DNA from: Escherichia coli
Lineage (GTDB): Bacteria; Pseudomonadota; Gammaproteobacteria; Enterobacterales; Enterobacteriaceae
DNA: 64,000 nucleotides
NCBI RefSeq assembly: GCF_003991155.1
Contig: NZ_CP031295.1
Reading direction: 5' to 3' (one strand)
Part shown: positions 18,239 through 30,861 of the stretch, piece after piece
Layout: every line of letters begins with the position of its first letter
Position numbering within the stretch: the stretch's first letter is position 1
Program-made: the position numbers and the translations under genes
Notes under the pieces: model-generated
Databases searched by the model: none
Seen by the model: only the letters and a program-made list of their open reading frames with translations
What the model was told of the DNA's origin: nothing

Positions 18239-18525
18239 AAAAACCTCTACGATGTGTTCTTATATAATAATATATATCATATTTTCACGATTAACATAAT
18301 ATCTTCGTTAAGAAAACAACAGAGCAAAATTTGTTTTTTTTTGACAGGCATGAAATGAGCCAGCATAATTATATTAATTATTATCCCAAATGAGTTTTTG
18401 TATTTGCTCATTCGGGATGGTTGGATATTTTAAGTTATATCTACTGTATCATTCTCAGGTAATCGTTCCATTAAATCAGAAACTACGGGCTGTAACCAGT
18501 CAGTGACTTCACTCACATACTGATG

Positions 18526-19992
18526 TCATTCGGGATGCCTGGAGGCCAGATCCATCACTCGTGTTAACCCGGACGGACGATCAATGCCCAATTTAGTTAA
18601 AATATTCGAGATATAATTATGAGCATCAAGTTCAACTCTGATATCCCTTGCTGCTTCGATTATTTCTAAATATTCGCCACCCAATCCGTCCAGTGGGACA
18701 TTTGTAATAAGATAATGAATGTATTGTTCAGGCTTAACCCCATTTGGGAGATTAAATTGTTTTACTTTTCCTTCCGCTGCCGCTTTTAACTCATAAGTTC
18801 GTGATTCTGTGCCGGTGAAAACTTTATCACGAGCAGTTTTCTTTTCATTTTCTGTGGAATATTTATCGCCATCAAGAATATAAAGTTTACCAGATAGATT
18901 GTCACCACGAATAAGGGTACTGGCAAGTAGAGTGAATGCGTTTGAAGCTGCGCCAAATTTAAATATTTTTACATATTTGCTGGCCTTAAGTGAAGAACAT
19001 ATTTTATTTATTATGGCAACAGCTAAGTCATCTTCTACATATATTTCAATAGGCGTCGTTGATTCACCTGTTAATCTGTTTATAGCATCAGGTTTTGTTT
19101 CTTCAAATGAATAACTACGGCCTTGAATGTTTACGACGTGTCTTATATTTATCTTGTCTGATAAAGTGGTTATCATTTCTCTATGGGTAGTAAAGATGAT
19201 TTGTTTGTTTTTATCTTTGGCATGAGATGATATGACTTCTATTAACTTTTTCAATGCTTCGTCATGCAACAATAAATCTAATTCATCAATTAATATTAAG
19301 GCGTTCTTGTCCGCTTTCAATATTGTTTCCAGAATTAAAAATATCTTTTGCTCTCCTGCGCTCATACTCAATGATGAGTAGGCCAGTCCCCCTGACTCAA
19401 CTCCAATCAATATTTTTCCATTGGGTTGTTGATGCTGATTGAAACTTGTGTATGGTTTATTAAGTATATAGGAGGCGTAATGAAGAATGTTTGTTATTAA
19501 ATCATTACTGACACTGCTGGTTTCATACTGAATATTATTCTTTTTTTCTGATTCTATTATAGGAACACATTTATCAATGCCAAGATAGTAAACTTCTCTT
19601 AAAGGACGACGAGCATAAATCTGAATCCATCGTGAGCCTCGAATATCTGCTTTTCCATAATTTTTCAATTCATTTTCAATCATTACCCCATCTTTACGAT
19701 AAGTTAAATTTACAATGAAGTCACTGCCGTTCCATTCAGCATGTGGGCTGCGTGGAAAAAAATGCATTAACCGATGGTCTTCACCGGGGAAACCTTCTTC
19801 AGGCATGTATATGCTTGCTATAGCATGGAGTATTGTTGATTTTCCGCTTCCATTTGGACCTAAAATTGCGGTTAACGCATGAGGTTTAAAAATAATCTCG
19901 TTTAATCCATTTATACATTTTAGTTTGTTAATTTTAATGGAGTTCAAGACTTGACCAGTAATGGTTTTTTTATTTTTTTCTGCCATTTTCAA
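18526..19992 (-). CDS. OLD-family ABC ATPase-TOPRIM nuclease (defence-associated), apparently solo
   Basis: Walker A GPNGSGKST, signature/Walker B LSMSAGEQK...ILIDELDLLLHDE, H-loop FTTH; C-terminal TOPRIM-like IEIYVEDD and YILDGDKY; AT-rich. Confidence 0.55.
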   Translation of the reverse strand: MKMAEKNKKTITGQVLNSIKINKLKCINGLNEIIFKPHALTAILGPNGSGKSTILHAIASIYMPEEGFPGEDHRLMHFFPRSPHAEWNGSDFIVNLTYRKDGVMIENELKNYGKADIRGSRWIQIYARRPLREVYYLGIDKCVPIIESEKKNNIQYETSSVSNDLITNILHYASYILNKPYTSFNQHQQPNGKILIGVESGGLAYSSLSMSAGEQKIFLILETILKADKNALILIDELDLLLHDEALKKLIEVISSHAKDKNKQIIFTTHREMITTLSDKINIRHVVNIQGRSYSFEETKPDAINRLTGESTTPIEIYVEDDLAVAIINKICSSLKASKYVKIFKFGAASNAFTLLASTLIRGDNLSGKLYILDGDKYSTENEKKTARDKVFTGTESRTYELKAAAEGKVKQFNLPNGVKPEQYIHYLITNVPLDGLGGEYLEIIEAARDIRVELDAHNYISNILTKLGIDRPSGLTRVMDLASRHPE

Positions 19993-21449: not shown

Positions 21450-23588
21450 ATGGACATTGAAATACGCCACTGCAATAACATCGTACGAGCACATATCACC
21501 CTCACTGCCGATAAACTGAACATTAAGTTTGCGCCAAATGGTACTGGAAAAAGTACGCTGTCACGGGCCATAAGCTGTGCGGCGCGGGACGACATTCAGG
21601 GACTACAGGCACTGATGCCCTTCCGGCTGCGCGGAGAAAACCCCGATAGCACCGGGCCCATTGTCATCGGTGCTGACGGGATTGGGGACGTGATGTGCTT
21701 CAACGAGGAGTACGTCAGTCAGTTTACGTTCCAACCGGACGAGCTCATCAGTGATAGCTTTAATATTCTTATCCGCAATCAAGCCCATGCGGAAAGAGAG
21801 CGTGAAATAGAAGAAATGACGCAAAAGATCCGGGCTGTTTTCACGGATCACACTGAGCTGAACTCTCTGATAGACCATCTACAGGAACTCAGTAATGCTT
21901 TCAGATCAACCAGTTCCGGGATTTCACGTTCTTCAACCGGCATGAGAGGTCTGTCAGGCGGAAATAAAATACACCACATTCCGGCTGGTCTTGAGAACTA
22001 TCAACCCTACATCCGCAGTGAACGCCGCGTGGAATGGATTGACTGGCAGACAAAGGGACTCGAGTTTTCGCCCCTTTCGGATGGCTGCTGTCCGTTCTGT
22101 ACCGGTGATATCACGGGAAAGGAAGCACAAATTCGCCAAGTCAGAGAGGAATACGATAAATCCACCATTAAAAACCTGACCGCTATCATCAGACTGGTGG
22201 AAAACCTCGGTAATTACCTGACGGAGAGCGCCAGAGAACGCCTTCTGGCCATTACTATGCTTCAGAACGGTCCGGAAGCCGAACATATCGAGTACCTAGT
22301 GGCGTTGAAACGCCAGACCGATACGCTGACAGAGAAACTCACTGCGCTGAGAGGCCTGAATGTTTTCAGCCTGCAGGAACAGCAGAACGTTCGGGAGGTG
22401 CTCACTGCCAGGTTGATTGACCTGCAGTTCTTCCCTGATCTGCAATCCGAACTCATGCAGGGGATCACCGACAGACTGAACGCGGCCCTTATGGACCTGA
22501 TAAACCTTGCCGGACCGCTGCAGGGAAAAATTAACCGGCACCGGGACAGCATGATCCGGCTGATCGCACAGCACAAAACAAACATCAATAATTTCCTCAC
22601 TTATGCAGGCTATAAATACAGGGTGGATATAGCCGGCGAGGGAGAGCAGAGAAAACTCAGGCTACGACACATAGATTTTGACGGGTACGTCAGCGGCGGT
22701 AGCCAGCATCTCAGCTATGGAGAACGGAACGCCTTTGCGATTGTGTTATTCATGTATGAATGCCTGTCAAAAAACCCGGGACTGATTATCCTTGATGATC
22801 CCATATCTTCTTTTGATAAAAACAAGAAGTTTGCCATTCTTGAAATGCTGTTCAGACGTGCAAGTGGTGAATGCCTGAAGAACCGGACTGTACTTATGCT
22901 GACGCATGACGTGGAGCCTGTGATTGACACGCTGAAGTCAGTCAGAAGGTTGTTCAGTAATCAGGTGACCGCCTCCTGCCTGCGCCTGTCTGCTGGAGTC
23001 ATAGAAGAATTACCTGTTAACGACGGCGATATCATGACATTCATGCAGATCTGCAAATCCATCACCGCGTCAGCAGACTGTGAGGAGATCATTAAGCTCA
23101 TCTATCTTCGTCGCTACTTTGAAATCGTTGACGAACGTGGTGATGCTTATCAGCTTCTATCCAATCTATTCCATCGACGCGTCGTCCCGCTGGATTATCG
23201 CGAGCCTGCCGCTGCGGGCTCGGGCTATCCCAAAATGGCTCCTGAGAAAATTCAGCAGGCCTTGCGGGATATCCGGGAGTATGTGGACAGTTTTGATTAC
23301 CCGCGACTTCAGGCTCTCGTCAGCAGCCCAGATGAAATAAAAAACCTGTACCGTCGCTGTCGTAACGGCTATGAAAAACTGCAGGTATTCCGTTTACTGG
23401 AACTGGATCAGGACCATCCGGTAATACGAAAATTCGTTAACGAAACGTACCACATTGAAAATGAGTTCATCTGTCAACTAGATCCGTCCAGATTCGATCT
23501 CATCCCGGAGTACGTGATTATGGAATGTGACAAGCTCATCGCCCTGCCACCGGCAGCAAACCAGAGCTCGGTTGCCCGTATCGCTTGA
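21450..23588 (+). CDS. SMC/Rad50-like ABC ATPase with CxxC hook and C-terminal effector-like domain (RloC/PrrC-like candidate)
   Basis: Walker A APNGTGKST (aa~30); CCPFC (aa~223) in predicted coiled-coil insert; signature LSYGERNAF, Walker B LIILDDP, H-loop LMLTHD (aa~440-495); approx 210-aa C-terminal domain. Confidence 0.5.
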   Translation: MDIEIRHCNNIVRAHITLTADKLNIKFAPNGTGKSTLSRAISCAARDDIQGLQALMPFRLRGENPDSTGPIVIGADGIGDVMCFNEEYVSQFTFQPDELISDSFNILIRNQAHAEREREIEEMTQKIRAVFTDHTELNSLIDHLQELSNAFRSTSSGISRSSTGMRGLSGGNKIHHIPAGLENYQPYIRSERRVEWIDWQTKGLEFSPLSDGCCPFCTGDITGKEAQIRQVREEYDKSTIKNLTAIIRLVENLGNYLTESARERLLAITMLQNGPEAEHIEYLVALKRQTDTLTEKLTALRGLNVFSLQEQQNVREVLTARLIDLQFFPDLQSELMQGITDRLNAALMDLINLAGPLQGKINRHRDSMIRLIAQHKTNINNFLTYAGYKYRVDIAGEGEQRKLRLRHIDFDGYVSGGSQHLSYGERNAFAIVLFMYECLSKNPGLIILDDPISSFDKNKKFAILEMLFRRASGECLKNRTVLMLTHDVEPVIDTLKSVRRLFSNQVTASCLRLSAGVIEELPVNDGDIMTFMQICKSITASADCEEIIKLIYLRRYFEIVDERGDAYQLLSNLFHRRVVPLDYREPAAAGSGYPKMAPEKIQQALRDIREYVDSFDYPRLQALVSSPDEIKNLYRRCRNGYEKLQVFRLLELDQDHPVIRKFVNETYHIENEFICQLDPSRFDLIPEYVIMECDKLIALPPAANQSSVARIA

Positions 23589-23749: not shown

Positions 23750-24166
23750 TTACTTCACCCAGTCTTCCAGCACCAGGTCAGGCACTCGCTCAAATTCTCT
23801 TGTATTATTCGTTACCAGTATCGCCCCGGCGGCGATGGCGTGCCCGGCAATCGCCGTGTCGTTCGGGCCGATCGGCGTCCCGGCCAGCCGCAGTGCCACT
23901 TTAATCTTCGTGGTGGCGTCTACTGCGGCGCGATCCCAGGGCAGGATGGCATCGAGGCGGGCGCAGAATTCATCGACCAGTTGGACGTGACGTGGTGAGG
24001 CCTTTGGGCCGGTAGCCCCGAAGCGCATTTCAGAGTAGGTGATGGCCGAGACCACTATACGGTGGCCGCGTAGCACCGCCTGCTCCAGACGCTTCAGGAC
24101 GGCTTCTGGCTGTTCACGCATGATGAACGAGCAGATACAGGTATCAAGCATATAAGTCTTGTTCAC
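23750..24166 (-). CDS. vapC: VapC PIN-domain toxin
   Basis: 138 aa MLDTCICSFIMREQP...; PIN-domain acidic residues; overlaps vapB stop. Confidence 0.85.
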   Translation of the reverse strand: MNKTYMLDTCICSFIMREQPEAVLKRLEQAVLRGHRIVVSAITYSEMRFGATGPKASPRHVQLVDEFCARLDAILPWDRAAVDATTKIKVALRLAGTPIGPNDTAIAGHAIAAGAILVTNNTREFERVPDLVLEDWVK

Positions 24167-24393
24167 AGGTTAAATCGCCCTTCGTCGCTGACAACATCCT
24201 CGCGCTCCGCCATAAAATCTGGATCGGCTTTTTCGTACTCTAGGAATGATCCCCAGGTTGGCCGGACGGGGCGCAGGATGATGCTGTCCCCTTCCCGGAC
24301 GATCTCGAGCTCGCTCACCCCCTCAAAATCCAGATCACGAGGCAGACGGATGGCGCGGTTGTTGCCATTTTTGAATATCGATACGGTTCTCAT
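24163..24393 (-). CDS. vapB: VapB antitoxin (AbrB/SpoVT-type)
   Basis: 76 aa MRTVSIFKNGNNRAIRLPRDL...; 4-nt overlap with vapC. Confidence 0.85.
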   Translation of the reverse strand: MRTVSIFKNGNNRAIRLPRDLDFEGVSELEIVREGDSIILRPVRPTWGSFLEYEKADPDFMAEREDVVSDEGRFNL

Positions 24394-24407
24394 GTTTTTT
24401 CTCTCCC

Positions 24408-24540
24408 GAGCATATGGATATGTGAAACATATCCGGAATATTCAAAGCACCGGGTGTGTGCATATGTTTAGTATAGGCAGATGTGTGGCATATGTATAGC
24501 GGTAGCATATGTAGATGCCAGGCATATGTTTAGCATATCT
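24408..24540. promoter_or_regulatory. array of about six GCATATGT repeats upstream of vapB (putative vapBC operator)
   Basis: Repeated CATATG-core motifs spaced about 15-25 bp immediately upstream of vapB start. Confidence 0.4.
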
Positions 24541-24688
24541 CTATTTCTTTCTTTTTTATCGGAGATCCGAAAAAAGGTTAAGTCTGATCTTAATGAAATT
24601 ACATGGAATTTGAGTGATATCCCTTACCCCACATCTCCAACGTGCTATCTATAAAGGTTGATACATCTCACTTAGTCCGGAGGTTGTT

Positions 24689-24979
24689 ATGAGCGTCAAA
24701 ATCACAGGTTTAGACAAAATGCAGAAACAGCTAAAAGAGGTTGAGAGAGCAACAGAGGCATTAAACGGAAGTTATGATGTCCACTTCGATGCTAACGATC
24801 CTGTCAGCATTGAGAACGCGATTCAGGAAGCCTATTCCATGGTGTACGAACGCGCTTCTGGTTATGCCACTAATCCGATGGTCAGCCCATTAATCGAACA
24901 CATGAAAGAAAATCTGCGCCAACAGATTCTGGACAGAGCAGAACAACAAAGACAGGAGAGCGGGCAGGATGGCAATTGA
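24689..24979 (+). CDS. hypothetical small protein (96 aa), first gene of TIR-like cassette
   Basis: ORF with RBS-like GGAGG upstream; 11-nt overlap with next gene. Confidence 0.45.
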   Translation: MSVKITGLDKMQKQLKEVERATEALNGSYDVHFDANDPVSIENAIQEAYSMVYERASGYATNPMVSPLIEHMKENLRQQILDRAEQQRQESGQDGN

Positions 24980-25868
24980 TATCTTTCAGTCACTTAAAAA
25001 TTGCGTATTCGACCTTCAGCGCGCTGACGTTCAGAACTATCAGCAACCTCTTAAGCAATTGGCCCGGCTCTTGAACTCAGAGAATCTGCAGTCAGTTAAT
25101 GCACATCTGACCCGCAATGTTGAACTTGATACCTTTCTGGCCAGGAGTGAAGATACTGAATCCAGCATGGCTGGTTCCGCTGTTCTACAGTGGCCTGATG
25201 AGCCCGCTGATATTTTGGGCCTGAAGTTGCTGCTGATCGAGAAAATGGCAGACGATAACAATTTTTCCTTTAATTTCTGTCATACATTTTTCTATGATCG
25301 AAACATTATTGAATCCATTCGAAAATTCACGTCGTCATTAGTTGCCCCGTTCGTGCGCGATTACCAGTTGTATGTGGAAAACCAACACGATCCTGAGCCT
25401 GCAGTGTTTCGGCCGGTTTCCCGAAAAATTTTTATTGTTCATGGCCATGATAATGATGCCCTTCAGTCTGTTGCCCGTTTTATATCCCGGATAGGTCTTG
25501 AGGAAATCATTCTTTCAGAACGTCCTGACGGCTCCAGGACGATTATCGAGAAATTTGAAGCAGAGTCAGGGGATGTCAGTTTTGCCATCGTGCTGATGAC
25601 GCCCGACGATAGCGGCAGTGCTCTGGCATCTGAAAGCACACGTCTCCGCGCACGCCAGAATGTCCTGTATGAGCTCGGATATTTCGCCGGGAAGCTTGGA
25701 CGCGGGAAAGTACTTGTACTCAGGAAGGGAGATATCGAAATCCCTTCAGATCTTGCCGGGGTTCTCTATACCGAGCTTGATGAGCATGGTGGATGGAAAC
25801 GCAAACTGCTGAGTGAGCTTGCGTATGCCGGTGTTCCTTTTGACAAGGATAAAGCATTAAGCGCCTGA
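24969..25868 (+). CDS. TIR-like-domain protein (PF10137-type C-terminus) with unknown N-terminal domain
   Basis: C-terminal motifs KIFIVHGHD, AIVLMTPDD, RARQNVLYELGYFAGKLGRGKV, EIPSDLAGV typical of predicted nucleotide-binding TIR-like proteins. Confidence 0.55.
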   Translation: MAIDIFQSLKNCVFDLQRADVQNYQQPLKQLARLLNSENLQSVNAHLTRNVELDTFLARSEDTESSMAGSAVLQWPDEPADILGLKLLLIEKMADDNNFSFNFCHTFFYDRNIIESIRKFTSSLVAPFVRDYQLYVENQHDPEPAVFRPVSRKIFIVHGHDNDALQSVARFISRIGLEEIILSERPDGSRTIIEKFEAESGDVSFAIVLMTPDDSGSALASESTRLRARQNVLYELGYFAGKLGRGKVLVLRKGDIEIPSDLAGVLYTELDEHGGWKRKLLSELAYAGVPFDKDKALSA

Positions 25869-25917
25869 TCTCCTTCATTTAGTAAGAAAAAGGCCGCTAA
25901 GCGGCCTTAATTTTTGG

Positions 25918-28143
25918 TCAGTCGTCATTTTCCAGCGCTGTTTTGAGCGCTTCCTGCTCCGGAGTCAGCTCGTTGCCGGACAGCATAACCTTCAACTTCT
26001 CTTCGACTGCTGGCCAGTCATCAAAGAACGGACTGACCTGGTCACGCGCAATCCGGCGATATGCCCCTCGGTGGGAGCTGAAGACACTGGTCTGTAATCG
26101 TATCAACAGGTTAACAAGGCCTTCATCAGTGGTAGTAACTTCTCTGACCCATTGCTTCACGGTTTCACCTGAACTCATGTCTCTCCAGGCGTAGAGATAC
26201 CCGAGAAGAGACTTGCGCAGGAGAAGCTGTTGCTGAAGTTCTGGTTGATTCATACGTTCCGCAAACCTGTCACGCAACCGTTCCGTAATATCGCGACTGA
26301 AAAGAGCGTCTGAAGGCGAAGGTACTGCATTCTGAGCAAGTCCATGTTCCCAGATAAGATCCCGCATAAAATCGGCTATCCAGAACGGCGAAGCACCCGT
26401 AACGATCAGTTTTTCCATAAGCGTGATCGTTCTGGTCTCATCAATATCCTGCATATGCTTCAGCAGATGCCGTACAACCTCATTAATGGCCATTTCACGC
26501 AGGGAAAACCATGGGTTACGGATACTGAAGCGAGTGCTCACCTCATCGGTGTGATCGAAGAAAAAATGAACCAGTCCTGCGCACTCTTCGAAATTACGTT
26601 CTCTTATCAGGCCTGGAGTCAGTCTGCTCAGTATATGTTCAAACCAGGTTCCGGACAGACTGCCCACACTGTTGATTTTTGAGAGCAGCAATTCAGAAAG
26701 CTGCTGCTGTTTTTCCGATACGCCAGCCTGTTCAAAAAGCTGTCTGAAGAATTCAGGTGGCAGAACATTCTGTGGTGAGGAGAAGGCAAAATAATATCGC
26801 CAGTGCGTCAGGCTGCTGAGTCGTTTACCGGTCGTCTGGATATGACGAAAATCCTCACTGACGGGCTCAAAAAGATTCAGATATTCATCATTATGTCCAC
26901 TGATACCTGGGATCCAGTCTGCAAGTGTCAGAAACGAGTCTGCATTTGATGCCCTGAACGTCTTCATACATCTGATAAGCCCCTCCCGGAAGTCTGCTTT
27001 CTCTCCGTCAGAAAGCATACCCTGACCGGTTTCAATCACGGACCGTTCTGTCAGGTAATGCTCTGTCCAGTCATACAGAGCCGGGTTTGTCACCCGTATA
27101 AGCTGAAGCAGGCACAAATCAGGGAAATAAACAAAATCCCGCATCCCCGGATAAAGAAAAATCAGGGAATTAATGGCCTGATGGATTTCCCGTGGCGTCG
27201 AAAGTGCGGCACCATAGGTATCAGTCACCGCGATGAGATCCCTTACCATTCCAGAGTCTGGCGGTTGATTATTAATTTGCTGATATAGAGCCTCAGCCCG
27301 CTGGCGAAATTCATTACGTAAATCAAAGGCTTCAGGTCGGGGTAATTTAAAACTAAGCTGAATGATTTTCTGGAGATAACGGCTGCCATCTTCGATATTC
27401 AGCGCATGTTCAACGGCATGAGTGATAATCTGCCTGTCATAACAGAGAATATGGGTAAAGCGGGGCAGATCGGCTACTGCACGCACAAGCCTGAACACTT
27501 CCGCCACCTGGGATGGCTCCAGTCGGTCCAGATCATCCATGACAACAATGAACTTCAGATCCAGACTCACCAGTTGTCCTGCAATTTCAGCCCGAAGCTT
27601 TGTCGTGGTTTTCTGATCAACAGCCAGACGGCTGTCTGAAAATACCTTTATTCCGCCTGCTATCCAGTTAATAATGCTGGAAAACTGTCCGATATATTGA
27701 ACCAGTGGAAGGACGCGCGATGAAGTATCCTGAGCATACTCAATCACTTTTTGAGCTTCCGGTGACAACAGATATTTACGCCAGAGCTTTTTGAAGCCCT
27801 TCGGGGGATAGCGTATTTCCATTTCCTGCTGGATAACCGTGGCAACCGGAAGAAAGAGCGCTTCAACCGGACTGCCGCCACTCAGCCAGGGAGAAATATG
27901 CAGCACATGCGTGTGAGCATCTTTTTTCAGGGCAAGGTTTCTCAGGATCAGATTAAGGAGGCTTGTTTTACCCGATCCCCATGCACCTTCTATTCCGACA
28001 ACATTTGAAGCCTCCAGAGGAAGAGTAAGGATGGAACGGGATATATTTTCTGCGATATTACCGAAACCGTATCGATCCTCAGGTACATCTTCAACTGCCG
28101 CATCAAGCCCTTTCTGGTTCCACAGCTGCCTCAGTATCTTCAT
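25918..28143 (-). CDS. KAP family P-loop NTPase
   Basis: 741 aa; Walker A GAWGSGKTS, Walker B FIVVMDDLDRL; large size typical of KAP NTPases. Confidence 0.6.
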   Translation of the reverse strand: MKILRQLWNQKGLDAAVEDVPEDRYGFGNIAENISRSILTLPLEASNVVGIEGAWGSGKTSLLNLILRNLALKKDAHTHVLHISPWLSGGSPVEALFLPVATVIQQEMEIRYPPKGFKKLWRKYLLSPEAQKVIEYAQDTSSRVLPLVQYIGQFSSIINWIAGGIKVFSDSRLAVDQKTTTKLRAEIAGQLVSLDLKFIVVMDDLDRLEPSQVAEVFRLVRAVADLPRFTHILCYDRQIITHAVEHALNIEDGSRYLQKIIQLSFKLPRPEAFDLRNEFRQRAEALYQQINNQPPDSGMVRDLIAVTDTYGAALSTPREIHQAINSLIFLYPGMRDFVYFPDLCLLQLIRVTNPALYDWTEHYLTERSVIETGQGMLSDGEKADFREGLIRCMKTFRASNADSFLTLADWIPGISGHNDEYLNLFEPVSEDFRHIQTTGKRLSSLTHWRYYFAFSSPQNVLPPEFFRQLFEQAGVSEKQQQLSELLLSKINSVGSLSGTWFEHILSRLTPGLIRERNFEECAGLVHFFFDHTDEVSTRFSIRNPWFSLREMAINEVVRHLLKHMQDIDETRTITLMEKLIVTGASPFWIADFMRDLIWEHGLAQNAVPSPSDALFSRDITERLRDRFAERMNQPELQQQLLLRKSLLGYLYAWRDMSSGETVKQWVREVTTTDEGLVNLLIRLQTSVFSSHRGAYRRIARDQVSPFFDDWPAVEEKLKVMLSGNELTPEQEALKTALENDD

Positions 28144-28144
28144 A

Positions 28145-29236
28145 TTACAGATCTCCGTACAGGCAGCGCAGCCCGGTCAGGGCCTCCGCCAGCGGGCCTT
28201 CTTGACACCGCGTGGCGAGCTCCCGGACCAGCGTCTCAAAGGCCTCCGCCGGCATAAAAATCCGCAGGCCGTCTATCCCGAAGAAGCCCTCCGGCGTGAC
28301 GTTTCCGGGCGGGGAGAACATCACTCGCTCCCCCTGGTGACCGTGCGTCAGGGCTTCCGGATGCCGGGCATACAGCGTGAACAGGCCCAGCAGTTCGGAT
28401 AACGCTTCCCAGCCGTACGGCACCACGAAGTCCTGGCCGGTGATCAGCAGGTGCAGACGGGGTGTGGTGTACCAGGCCCCCGGGCGTTCTCCGGGGTGCT
28501 GGCCGTCAACGCGGATCTCCAGGCGCAGCGTGCCGGCCTCAATGGTTTCCGTGACGGCAGAAATAACCGGGCGCAGCTCCTGTGCCAGCGTTCTTGCCTG
28601 TTCTGTGTTCCAGTCCAGGCCGCGCAGCATCAACGGGAAAACAGCTTTCAGCCGCGGCAGGGTGAAGATTTCTGCCAGCACCGCGTCCGGCACCTCCGCC
28701 AGGCCAAAACAGTCGCTCTCGAGCGGACGCAGGAGGTGTTCGGCATACATCTGATCCACCACGGGGCGCAGCGCTGCCCGGAAGGCTTCAAACTCTTCCG
28801 TCCAGTTTTTCCCGGCCAGGCGGAAAATCCCCTTCAGGTAGTGACCGTCCACAGGGCGATCGTGCTCCACCTGCCAGGCCAGCAGGTTGCCAGTGATGTC
28901 CAGCAGCGTGTCCAGGGCCGGGAGTGTGGCCAGCCTATTATGCCCGCGCAGGAAGGCCTCCCTGACGTGAACCAGGACAAAGCGCAGTTCGTCGCGGGAG
29001 AGCGCTGACGTGCCGAAGGTCTGGCCCAGAATGATATGCCGGTACAGCTGCCGGACCGTGGCCTCCGGATCGGCAATGAGCTGAAAATACCCGTCACCGG
29101 GCGCGACCGTTTTCAGGCCGTCATCGAGGAAGCGTTCGGCTAGGGCGTTGACCGAAGTATTTTCCCGACCGGCACGCGTTTTCAGCGCCTCGATAAGTTT
29201 TTTGTGAAAACGCAGGTTAAGCTGGCTTAGCATCAT
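28145..29236 (-). CDS. ribbon-helix-helix (Arc/MetJ-like) domain protein with large uncharacterised C-terminal domain
   Basis: N-terminus MMLSQLNLRFHKKLIEALKTRAGRENTSVNALAERFL resembles Arc-type RHH; GC-rich; stop overlaps KAP start (ATGA). Confidence 0.45.
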   Translation of the reverse strand: MMLSQLNLRFHKKLIEALKTRAGRENTSVNALAERFLDDGLKTVAPGDGYFQLIADPEATVRQLYRHIILGQTFGTSALSRDELRFVLVHVREAFLRGHNRLATLPALDTLLDITGNLLAWQVEHDRPVDGHYLKGIFRLAGKNWTEEFEAFRAALRPVVDQMYAEHLLRPLESDCFGLAEVPDAVLAEIFTLPRLKAVFPLMLRGLDWNTEQARTLAQELRPVISAVTETIEAGTLRLEIRVDGQHPGERPGAWYTTPRLHLLITGQDFVVPYGWEALSELLGLFTLYARHPEALTHGHQGERVMFSPPGNVTPEGFFGIDGLRIFMPAEAFETLVRELATRCQEGPLAEALTGLRCLYGDL

Positions 29237-29777
29237 CGATCCTTTAATGTTTGTTTTGTTCTTAATGCTAACCTAGCATTTTATTATTAGCTATTAATCA
29301 GTTTTTTAGTTTTTGAAAATTGTGATGCTTCTAAAATTGAGGATTTTAATGCTACAACAATGCCTGCCTCTTCTTATTTCTCCGGAGATCCGAAAACCCC
29401 AGGTTACGGATCTTCCTCTCCCCCCACACAACGCCACCTCCTGTCAGCACAACATGTGGTATCTCATTCAGCTGCTCATGACACTATATGTTGTGTCATC
29501 TCCCTGACCTGTGATGCGCCGCGCAGGGGCGGAAAACAGCGATATGATTATTTTCTCAGCGTGGTACACTTCCGGAAAGTTGTGATATTCCGGAAAGTCG
29601 GATCTGACGGAAACGGCTCTCCGGTAATTTAACTGCGTTTCTATATGGCTACTTATTATTTCAGTATGTGAAATTCATTTTTTGTGAAAGTCACTGTTCT
29701 CAACAGAGTGGCACTCATCTGGCGATGATTGAGGTGTGGTAAAATTGCACGGCTAACTATTCAACTGAGGAAAGGAC

Positions 29778-30171: not shown

Positions 30172-30861
30172 ATGGCTGACTGGTTTATTGCGACCGAAGG
30201 CGTGAAGGTGGTGAAGGACAGCGCCAGTCTGGGGCCGCAGATAATTACAGCTGTATCGACCATCGCATCTGCTGTCGGAGCGGTGTTCCTTACTCACCAC
30301 TTCACACTCAGACGTGAGGAGAGAACTGCAGCAGCGAAGCTGGCCAGCGAGCGTCTTTACATTAGTACAGAGCTGGTTTTTTTACTTGAGCGATTTGCGC
30401 AGCGTTGCGCTCCAGCAGCAACAGCAACTGTGGAGCACGATCAGGATGGCAGAGGAGAAGCTGAGTTCTTATTACCGGAAATCGATTATTCCCCGGTATC
30501 TGGTAACTGGCGCTCCCTTCCTTCTGGCCTGATGTATAGGCTCAGCGAACTCTCTGTTCTCAGCTACGAAGCTGTCGTGTGTGTAGATAATGTGTTTGTT
30601 GAAGATACTCCTTATGGTGGAGCGGGTGAATATAGTTTGCATAAAAACGCAGCTATGTTGGGAGTAAAAGCACTGCGGTTATCACGAGAACTGAGAATGT
30701 TATGTGGCCTCCCTCTGCACGGCCTTTCCGATACACTATCGCCAACGAGGTTGGTATTGTTGAAAGCCAGAGGTAAAACACTCCAAAAGGAGTACGAAAT
30801 GGTAAAGAAGTCTAAAAAGACCGAGCAAGAGATTGAGGATTTCATAAAGGGGACATCATGA
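30172..30861 (+). CDS. hypothetical protein with N-terminal hydrophobic segment (229 aa)
   Basis: Hydrophobic stretch IITAVSTIASAVGAVFL; 4-nt overlap with following recombinase gene. Confidence 0.4.
   Translation: MADWFIATEGVKVVKDSASLGPQIITAVSTIASAVGAVFLTHHFTLRREERTAAAKLASERLYISTELVFLLERFAQRCAPAATATVEHDQDGRGEAEFLLPEIDYSPVSGNWRSLPSGLMYRLSELSVLSYEAVVCVDNVFVEDTPYGGAGEYSLHKNAAMLGVKALRLSRELRMLCGLPLHGLSDTLSPTRLVLLKARGKTLQKEYEMVKKSKKTEQEIEDFIKGTS

Follow-up and report, generated by a model that had tools for sequence, protein, structure and literature searches.

The DNA immediately upstream of the vapBC (vagCD-lineage) operon of plasmid R64 carries a long array of 6-bp palindromes related to CATATG which, on comparative sequence grounds, most likely constitutes a multi-site autoregulatory operator recognized by the antitoxin VapB or by the VapBC complex. 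That more than two complexes would bind the array cooperatively is a narrower proposition, for which we consider the chances to be about even; we infer VapB or VapBC as the binding protein, as well as its stoichiometry and cooperativity.

The array in front of vapBC on R64

The window, by which we mean the whole 64,000-nt stretch of DNA analysed here, corresponds to the IncI1 plasmid R64. The kilobase around the array is 100% identical to positions 37,923–38,923 of NC_005014.1, and numerous plasmids of E. coli, Salmonella and Klebsiella match it just as exactly. A similar sequence is carried by 4,791 of 72,556 plasmid records and by 1,587 of the 5,426 complete E. coli genomes. Both vapB and vapC lie on the minus strand, thus placing the array immediately upstream of vapB (Table 1), and the PIN toxin gene follows directly, overlapping vapB by 4 nt and translationally coupled to it. 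VapB was recognized by the Pfam model MazE_antitoxin PF04014 (37 bits, for a cut-off of 24.7) and by the NCBIfam model NF040493 TA_anti_VapB (95.5 bits, for a cut-off of 60), and its nearest solved relatives are the VapBs of Salmonella LT2, C. crescentus and R. felis (PDB relatives 6IFM, 5K8J/5L6L and 3ZVK). VapC matched the Pfam PIN domain PF01850 (E 2.8e-15, 57.4 bits), and its best solved relatives are tRNA(fMet)-specific VapC proteins (E 3e-27); its equivalog and subfamily scores lay below the NCBIfam cut-offs (122 vs 140 and 104.6 vs 143, respectively). Note that the pair is named VagC/VagD in some records and that VapC is present in all 69 usable homologous loci.

The first-pass annotation had described about six repeats within the 130 bp upstream of vapB. 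The repeats and their location are borne out, but the count and the 12-nt unit were incomplete, since the stretch 24411–24539 contains 12 hexamer positions, of which 9 are CATATG-like (the hexamer family counted here being CATATG, CATCTG/CAGATG and CATATC/GATATG) and 3 are degenerate (TATAGG, TATAGC and TAGATG), with lattice steps of 6, 11 and 17 bp. Exact copies of GCATATGT are located at 24460, 24488, 24505 and 24522, and the 64 kb contain a single other one; the 12-mer GCATATGTWTAG matches, with at most two mismatches, at 24410, 24460, 24488, 24505 and 24522. Within 140 bp, CATATG is found five times and the hexamer family nine times, compared to maxima of 1 and 4 elsewhere in the window and of 3 and 4 per 140 bp in 300 simulated 64-kb sequences (Markov-1). 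In addition, the self-similarity of 24456–24545 peaks at lags of 11, 17, 28, 34 and 45 (z 4.6–5.9), and the architecture of the lattice consists of 12-mer double hexamers which, together with 5-nt spacers, give a 17-bp period. On the plus strand, the core and distal part reads CATATG(24461) tttag TATAGG-CAGATG tgtgg CATATG-TATAGC ggtag CATATG-TAGATG ccagg CATATG tttag CATATC(24534). Closer to the gene, the proximal triple reads CATATG-GATATG-tgaaa-CATATC and contains a perfect inverted repeat, GGATATGT-gaa-ACATATCC (24416–24434); its 0/11/17 pattern is found again in homologous loci.

Table 1. Features in and around the hexamer array of R64 (window coordinates)
Feature	Position	Strand	Basis or remark
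vapC, vagD-type PIN-domain toxin, 138 aa	23750–24166	−	ORF, Pfam PIN PF01850, RefSeq annotation of R64
vapB, vagC-type antitoxin, 76 aa, AbrB/MazE-type DNA-binding N-terminus	24163–24393	−	Pfam, NCBIfam, PDB relatives
vapB Shine-Dalgarno GGGAGAG, 7 nt 5′ of the vapB ATG	24401–24407	−	sequence reading
Proximal hexamer triple in the predicted 5′ UTR: CATATG 24411, GATATG 24417, CATATC 24428 (plus-strand reading; steps 6, 11)	24411–24433
Core and distal lattice (plus-strand reading): CATATG 24461, TATAGG 24472, CAGATG 24478, CATATG 24489, TATAGC 24495, CATATG 24506, TAGATG 24512, CATATG 24523, CATATC 24534	24461–24539
CATATG hexamer covering the predicted start (~24463, minus strand), located 3 nt downstream from the −10	24461–24466		consensus TATACT-NNN-CaTATGc
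Predicted −10, TATACT	24470–24475	−	sigma-70-like scan; conserved in 54/69 loci upstream of vapB
Predicted −35, TATACA, on the upstream side of the −10 at 17 nt; hexamers 24489 and 24495 overlap it	24493–24498	−	scan and cTATACA consensus at fixed 17-nt distance
Pyrimidine run and imperfect rfsF-like inverted repeat: AGATCCG (24563–24569), 14 nt, CTGATCT (24584–24590), GATC in both arms	24540–24590		directly abuts the distal hexamer

A scan of 24300–24750 returned a single sigma-70-like site, TATACA/17 nt/TATACT on the minus strand, which is not significant when taken alone. When the 69 upstream regions (i.e., the window and 68 homologous loci) were anchored on TATACT, the pattern of cTATACAtatg, a fixed spacer and gCaTATACT-NNN-CaTATGc was recovered in 54 of them, including loci having unrelated spacer sequence, and on this basis we take TATACA/TATACT to be the vapBC promoter. 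The vapBC transcription start is thus predicted near 24463, which would leave a 5′ UTR of ~70 nt. Hexamers overlap the predicted −35, −10 and +1, reach ~45 bp upstream of the −35 and appear again beside the Shine-Dalgarno sequence, so that palindromic sites overlap the operon's own conserved predicted promoter, as in autoregulatory toxin-antitoxin operators.

The repeats could also have been explained at the RNA level, as a structured RNA or a member of an RNA family, but the Rfam and folding results argue against such readings. Indeed, Rfam gave no match over the whole window at gathering thresholds and, under relaxed settings over 24300–24750, returned only a chance snoRNA match (E 3.3), and the predicted 5′ UTR folds no better than its shuffles (z −0.22), the one structure formed being a local 8-bp hairpin at the proximal inverted repeat. 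No terminator was returned by a scan of 24300–24750, and the GATC inverted repeat next to the array was rejected as a terminator because its T-run lies before and its A-run after the repeat, which is the wrong arrangement on either strand.

Conservation and length variation across vapBC loci

Eight plasmid modules were compared, from IncF plasmids (including pEK499 and pHUSEC2011-2) and from Pantoea and Leclercia plasmids, together with a further 76 loci from bacterial assemblies (one genome per species), of which 68 were usable (VapB identity 51–97%). The motif was found upstream of vapB in nearly all plasmid modules and assembly loci. Within the 68 loci, CATATG reached a density of 9.1 per kb over the 250 nt preceding vapB versus 0.13 per kb elsewhere (~70-fold), and 65 of them carried at least one CATATG upstream of vapB, bearing in mind that some of the sequences counted are related, so that the counts are not entirely independent of one another; this answers, in favor of the motif, the concern raised beforehand that homologous vapBC loci might lack the repeats. 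The spacing between successive hexamers, start to start, was mostly 6 bp (54 cases), 11 bp (67) or 17 bp (37), followed by 23, 28, 34 and 45 bp, each of the other spacings below 23 bp accounting for three cases at most in these 68 loci. The consensus derived from 63 distinct segments, in the vapB sense, is nTATnCATATGCnnnnCATCTGCATATr.

Among distant homologues, the hexamer pair can be retained under a different promoter. L060, L065, L067, L070, L073 and L074 have other −35/−10 contexts, yet keep two CATATG 11–12 bp apart; the most distant ones, from Shewanella, Spongiibacter and beta-proteobacterial MAGs (VapB identity 64–76%), have unrelated promoters such as TTGACA-17-TATGCT. Minimal versions of the array are also carried on multi-megabase chromosomal contigs. 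In a Gammaproteobacteria MAG (L080) with a 51%-identity VapB, whose N-terminus is MHTTRVFKNGNSQAVRIPADL, the CATATG pair is replaced by GTACA occurring twice at 11-bp spacing, ~20–40 nt upstream of vapB; this GTACA pair is a possible natural specificity switch, useful for recognition tests. The sites thus co-occur with their cognate antitoxin across lineages, as do the sites of an autoregulatory toxin-antitoxin operator, and the whole pattern is as expected if the hexamer acts as the antitoxin recognition element and the 11-bp pair as the minimal operator. The original suggestion that the repeats may be VapB/VapBC binding sites therefore gains strong comparative support, since in 65 of 68 loci this VapB lineage is accompanied by the motif, by its pairing at 11 bp and by its promoter overlap, and the association extends to unrelated promoters.

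The length of the array is variable, from 1 to 13 hexamers per locus, with a mean of 7.1 in the rfsF-linked (plasmid-type) context versus 3.1 elsewhere. Indels among the eight aligned plasmid arrays measured 34, 68 and 34 nt, corresponding to 2, 4 and 2 units of 17, together with one indel of 6 nt, and because of these multiples of 17 we conclude that the array grows and shrinks by whole units in phase. In the case of pEK499 (L004) and AR_0014 (L006), VapB and VapC are identical and the arrays differ by four 17-bp units (68 bp), which implies that no distal unit is essential by itself. These unit changes fit unequal recombination between repeats under a constraint to keep the lattice.

The rfsF-like neighbour and the surrounding module

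The rfsF-like element that abuts the array is a neighbour and lies outside the operator. A perfect second copy, AGATCCG-N14-CGGATCT, is found at 29386–29413, and both copies (24563–24590 and 29386–29413) share the form AGATCCG-N14-C(G/T)GATCT, with GATCs 22 bp apart and a pyrimidine run before each. The IncI1 rfsF boundary of R64 was published at 43,619/43,620 (PMC8004404), which corresponds to 29,397 in the window and therefore falls in the spacer of the second copy, so that the inverted repeat can be assigned as the rfsF site of a ResD-type tyrosine recombinase; an ORF for a ResD-type tyrosine recombinase is present at 30858–31649. Of the 69 upstream regions, 21 retain the inverted repeat beside the array, as do most of the plasmid versions, and homology between different backbones ends inside the repeat spacer. 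Gene sets of IncI1 are known to switch at rfsF (PMC9412624), and this explains why vapBC with its array appears as a portable block.

Other readings of this neighbourhood were rejected. The GATC repeat, ~150–160 bp upstream of pifC in R64 and F, was considered as the PifC operator (pifO), but published coordinates place rfsF there; moreover, pifC, orf96 and the TIR gene are found within 1.2 kb in none of the 76 genome loci, yet 21 of the 69 upstream regions keep the repeat. The palindrome ATGACAC-N8-GTGTCAT (29479–29500), tried as rfsF, was unsupported.

The two rfsF-like copies bracket ~4.8 kb with orf96, the PDC-S35 TIR protein gene, pifA and pifC. In pHUSEC2011-2, vapBC and one repeat are joined straight to the sequence after copy 2, as if a cassette had been gained or lost at rfsF. 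Between the copies, 24689–29236 is the pif region common to the F plasmid, with identical TIR-protein and PifA accessions and pifC at a matching position; this block comprises a 96-aa ORF without family match, a 299-aa CAP12/Pycsar-type TIR protein (PADLOC candidate PDC-S35), PifA and PifC. PifA is a KAP P-loop NTPase known for T7 exclusion, and the orf96–TIR pair is, as far as we have seen, uncharacterised. On the other side of the operon, 21450–23588 (plus strand) encodes a 712-aa AAA/ABC-type ATPase convergent with vapC, which matches the PADLOC candidate defence family PDC-S06 over its whole length (E 5e-286), so that vapBC lies inside a plasmid defence island; ibfA of R64 maps to ~18430–19986 of the window.

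Distal to rfsF, a block of ~200 nt (window 29420–29590; F plasmid L090, 3950–4120) is conserved from F and R64 to many species (also in L011, L017, L023, L030, L039, L047, L048 and L085) and includes the imperfect palindromes TTTCCGGAAGTGTACCAC, GACACAACATATAGYGTCAT and CCACATGTTGTG. In F, it lies in the pifC–ccdA interval, where oriV1 is said to lie. Note that in three IncF plasmids (L002, L005 and L006), the vapBC array, rfsF and the ccdAB operator are gathered within ~0.6 kb, ccdAB being ~560 bp from vapB, and that the vapB lattice contains CTATAC/TATACA, the palindromes of the ccdAB operator being GTATAC-like; cross-talk between the two is conceivable.

A proposed multi-complex operator and its alternatives

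The array shares part of its organization with several known systems. The enteric operators vapO1/vapO2 (Salmonella LT2 vapBC and Shigella/F-type mvpAT; Winther & Gerdes 2012, PMC3378870) serve, as in R64, an AbrB-type VapB and a PIN VapC, and have short A/T-rich palindromic half-sites overlapping the −35 and −10, with the toxin as co-repressor and one hetero-octamer per half-site pair. The mvpA-type operator displays a related motif, GGATAT/ATATCC, with four ATATCC-type half-sites (two inverted repeats) in an 81-bp intergenic region. In contrast, R64 has 12 positions over ~130 bp, on a 17-bp lattice that reaches upstream past the −35 and into the 5′ UTR with a variable copy number, and its half-sites are 11 bp apart compared to ~15–16 bp in the mvpA inverted repeat. 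The identity between the R64 and LT2 VapBs is low (E 6e-9), and vapBC2 of pSLT, tried as a characterised equivalent, proved to be an mvpAT orthologue of a different lineage. In the VapBC1–DNA complex of C. crescentus (5L6L/5L6M, PMC5389673), one AbrB-domain dimer binds each half-site, itself a small palindrome, and half-sites ~10 nt apart, in adjacent major grooves on one face, are spanned by one VapB4C4 octamer. The base and phosphate contacts of that VapB1 are made by Ser11, Asn13 and Arg21 (PMC5389673), which align with Asn9, Asn11 and Arg19 of R64 VapB, the DNA-contacting Asn and Arg being conserved; the N-terminal 20 residues of VapB are at least 90% conserved (two positions at least 80%) across 60 distinct homologues. 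C. crescentus VapBC1 differs by its single half-site pair over the −10 and +1, without an array, and by its motif.

The best functional analogue of the R64 array is the ccdAB operator of F, in which 113 bp contain eight imperfect 6-bp palindromes (GTATAC-like) ~12 bp apart, and repression is achieved through the avidity of many weak sites whose multiplicity gives a switch-like response to the toxin:antitoxin ratio (PMC5389731). However, CcdA is a ribbon-helix-helix protein forming open alternating chains of CcdA2–CcdB2, whereas VapBC forms closed octamers, and the R64 lattice alternates steps of 6 and 11 bp instead of a uniform ~12 bp. The heptads of the omega repressor of pSM19035 and the parC iterons of R1 also consist of 7–10 contiguous short repeats of mixed orientation around promoters, to which dimers bind cooperatively and whose copy number sets affinity; there, the binding proteins are ribbon-helix-helix proteins serving partition or global plasmid regulation, with no PIN toxin linked.

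For the autoregulatory operator that we favor, the recognition unit would be the 6-bp palindrome CATATG, with CATCTG, CATATC and TATAGN as tolerated variants, and each hexamer would accommodate one symmetric AbrB/MazE-type VapB dimer. A pair of hexamers at 11-bp spacing, i.e., one helical turn, would receive the two DNA-binding heads of one VapB4C4 hetero-octamer, and adjacent hexamers separated by 6 bp might be occupied alternatively rather than together. With its five or six 11-bp pairs, the R64 array would offer room for five or six octamers, successive ones being rotated by 17 bp round the helix, and several complexes on the −35, −10 and start would exclude RNA polymerase. The complex would thereby repress its own promoter, with loss of VapB or excess of VapC leading to derepression, following the enteric vapBC paradigm (PMC3378870). 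Many weak or moderate sites would then provide avidity and a steep response when the labile antitoxin is lost or the VapB:VapC ratio changes. The VapBC complexes known so far are closed octamers, each with a pair of DNA-binding heads, and this counts against the model as regards cooperation between octamers, which is hypothetical. In a more elaborate version, five or six VapB4C4 octamers would spiral on the 17-bp lattice as a nucleoprotein filament, with 17-bp quanta setting the repression threshold; because the array directly abuts the rfsF/ResD site in many plasmids, the coated array would also serve as accessory DNA coupling the toxin-antitoxin state to multimer resolution or module exchange at rfsF. 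This version should be read as a speculation with little chance of being correct.

Among the alternatives, the one with some weight, even if we consider it unlikely, is that only the core operator (the −35, −10 and +1 hexamers and/or the proximal inverted repeat) works and that the distal units arose neutrally, through slippage or through unequal recombination of 17-bp repeats, without any contribution to regulation. The wide variation in array length, including between plasmids with identical VapBC proteins, would be accounted for in this way, and chromosomal or distant homologues manage on two sites. However, the distal units retain both the hexamer sequence and the lattice phase, with indels in exact multiples of 17, expanded arrays recur in many independent lineages, and the mean is higher in the rfsF-linked loci; in ccdAB, moreover, site multiplicity is itself the regulatory principle (PMC5389731).

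The location of the array on a plasmid, next to a resolution site, could point instead to functions outside vapBC. The first-pass annotation had mentioned an iteron-like element, and the 17-bp direct-repeat period around a promoter, flanked by repeats, does give the array a superficial resemblance to iterons or to a centromere-like site such as the parC iterons of R1, with a role in replication, incompatibility or partition. Despite this period, no rep gene was found beside the array in R64 or the other contexts examined, nor were par genes (including parA/parM or parR-type genes), the neighbours being vapBC, defence genes, ccdAB or unrelated genes. These neighbours are wholly different among IncI1, IncF, Pantoea, Leclercia and chromosomal loci, only vapB and vapC being constant, minimal arrays reside on multi-megabase chromosomal contigs, and in L080 a divergent VapB goes with a changed motif. 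Iterons or a centromere are therefore rejected for want of a linked rep or par gene, and we regard them as very improbable. Very improbable, too, is the suggestion that the hexamers serve a host regulator or some other plasmid regulator, or the accessory architecture of the rfsF/ResD site, and not VapB. Here, the direct contact between array and rfsF-like site in R64 and at least 21 other loci and the description of vagCD as 'next to rfsF' in most IncR plasmids (PMC9412624) are set against 48 of the 69 upstream regions, which lack a complete rfsF-like repeat yet keep CATATG pairs, and against F, which carries rfsF without any CATATG array. The motif follows the antitoxin and not the recombination site.

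Toxin-antitoxin operators, VapB–DNA recognition and multi-site toxin-antitoxin operators are all already known, but no description seems to exist of a VapBC operator in which 6-bp palindromes form a long 17-bp lattice with a variable number of units. Indeed, our literature search on vagCD and this VapB lineage yielded only epidemiology and plasmid-annotation papers, with no operator, footprint or start-site study and no description of how the vagCD/vapBC module is regulated, although work in subscription journals (e.g., the original vagCD paper) may have been missed. Few addiction systems are as common as this module on clinical resistance plasmids. If the array is a true multi-complex operator, the avidity principle of many weak sites known from ccdAB would extend to the very large VapBC family, and plasmids would offer a natural allele series, in whole 17-bp units, relating site number to the threshold of toxin activation. 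Under the same condition, CATATG pairs 11 bp apart would provide a simple signature for predicting cross-regulation of co-resident vapBC copies.
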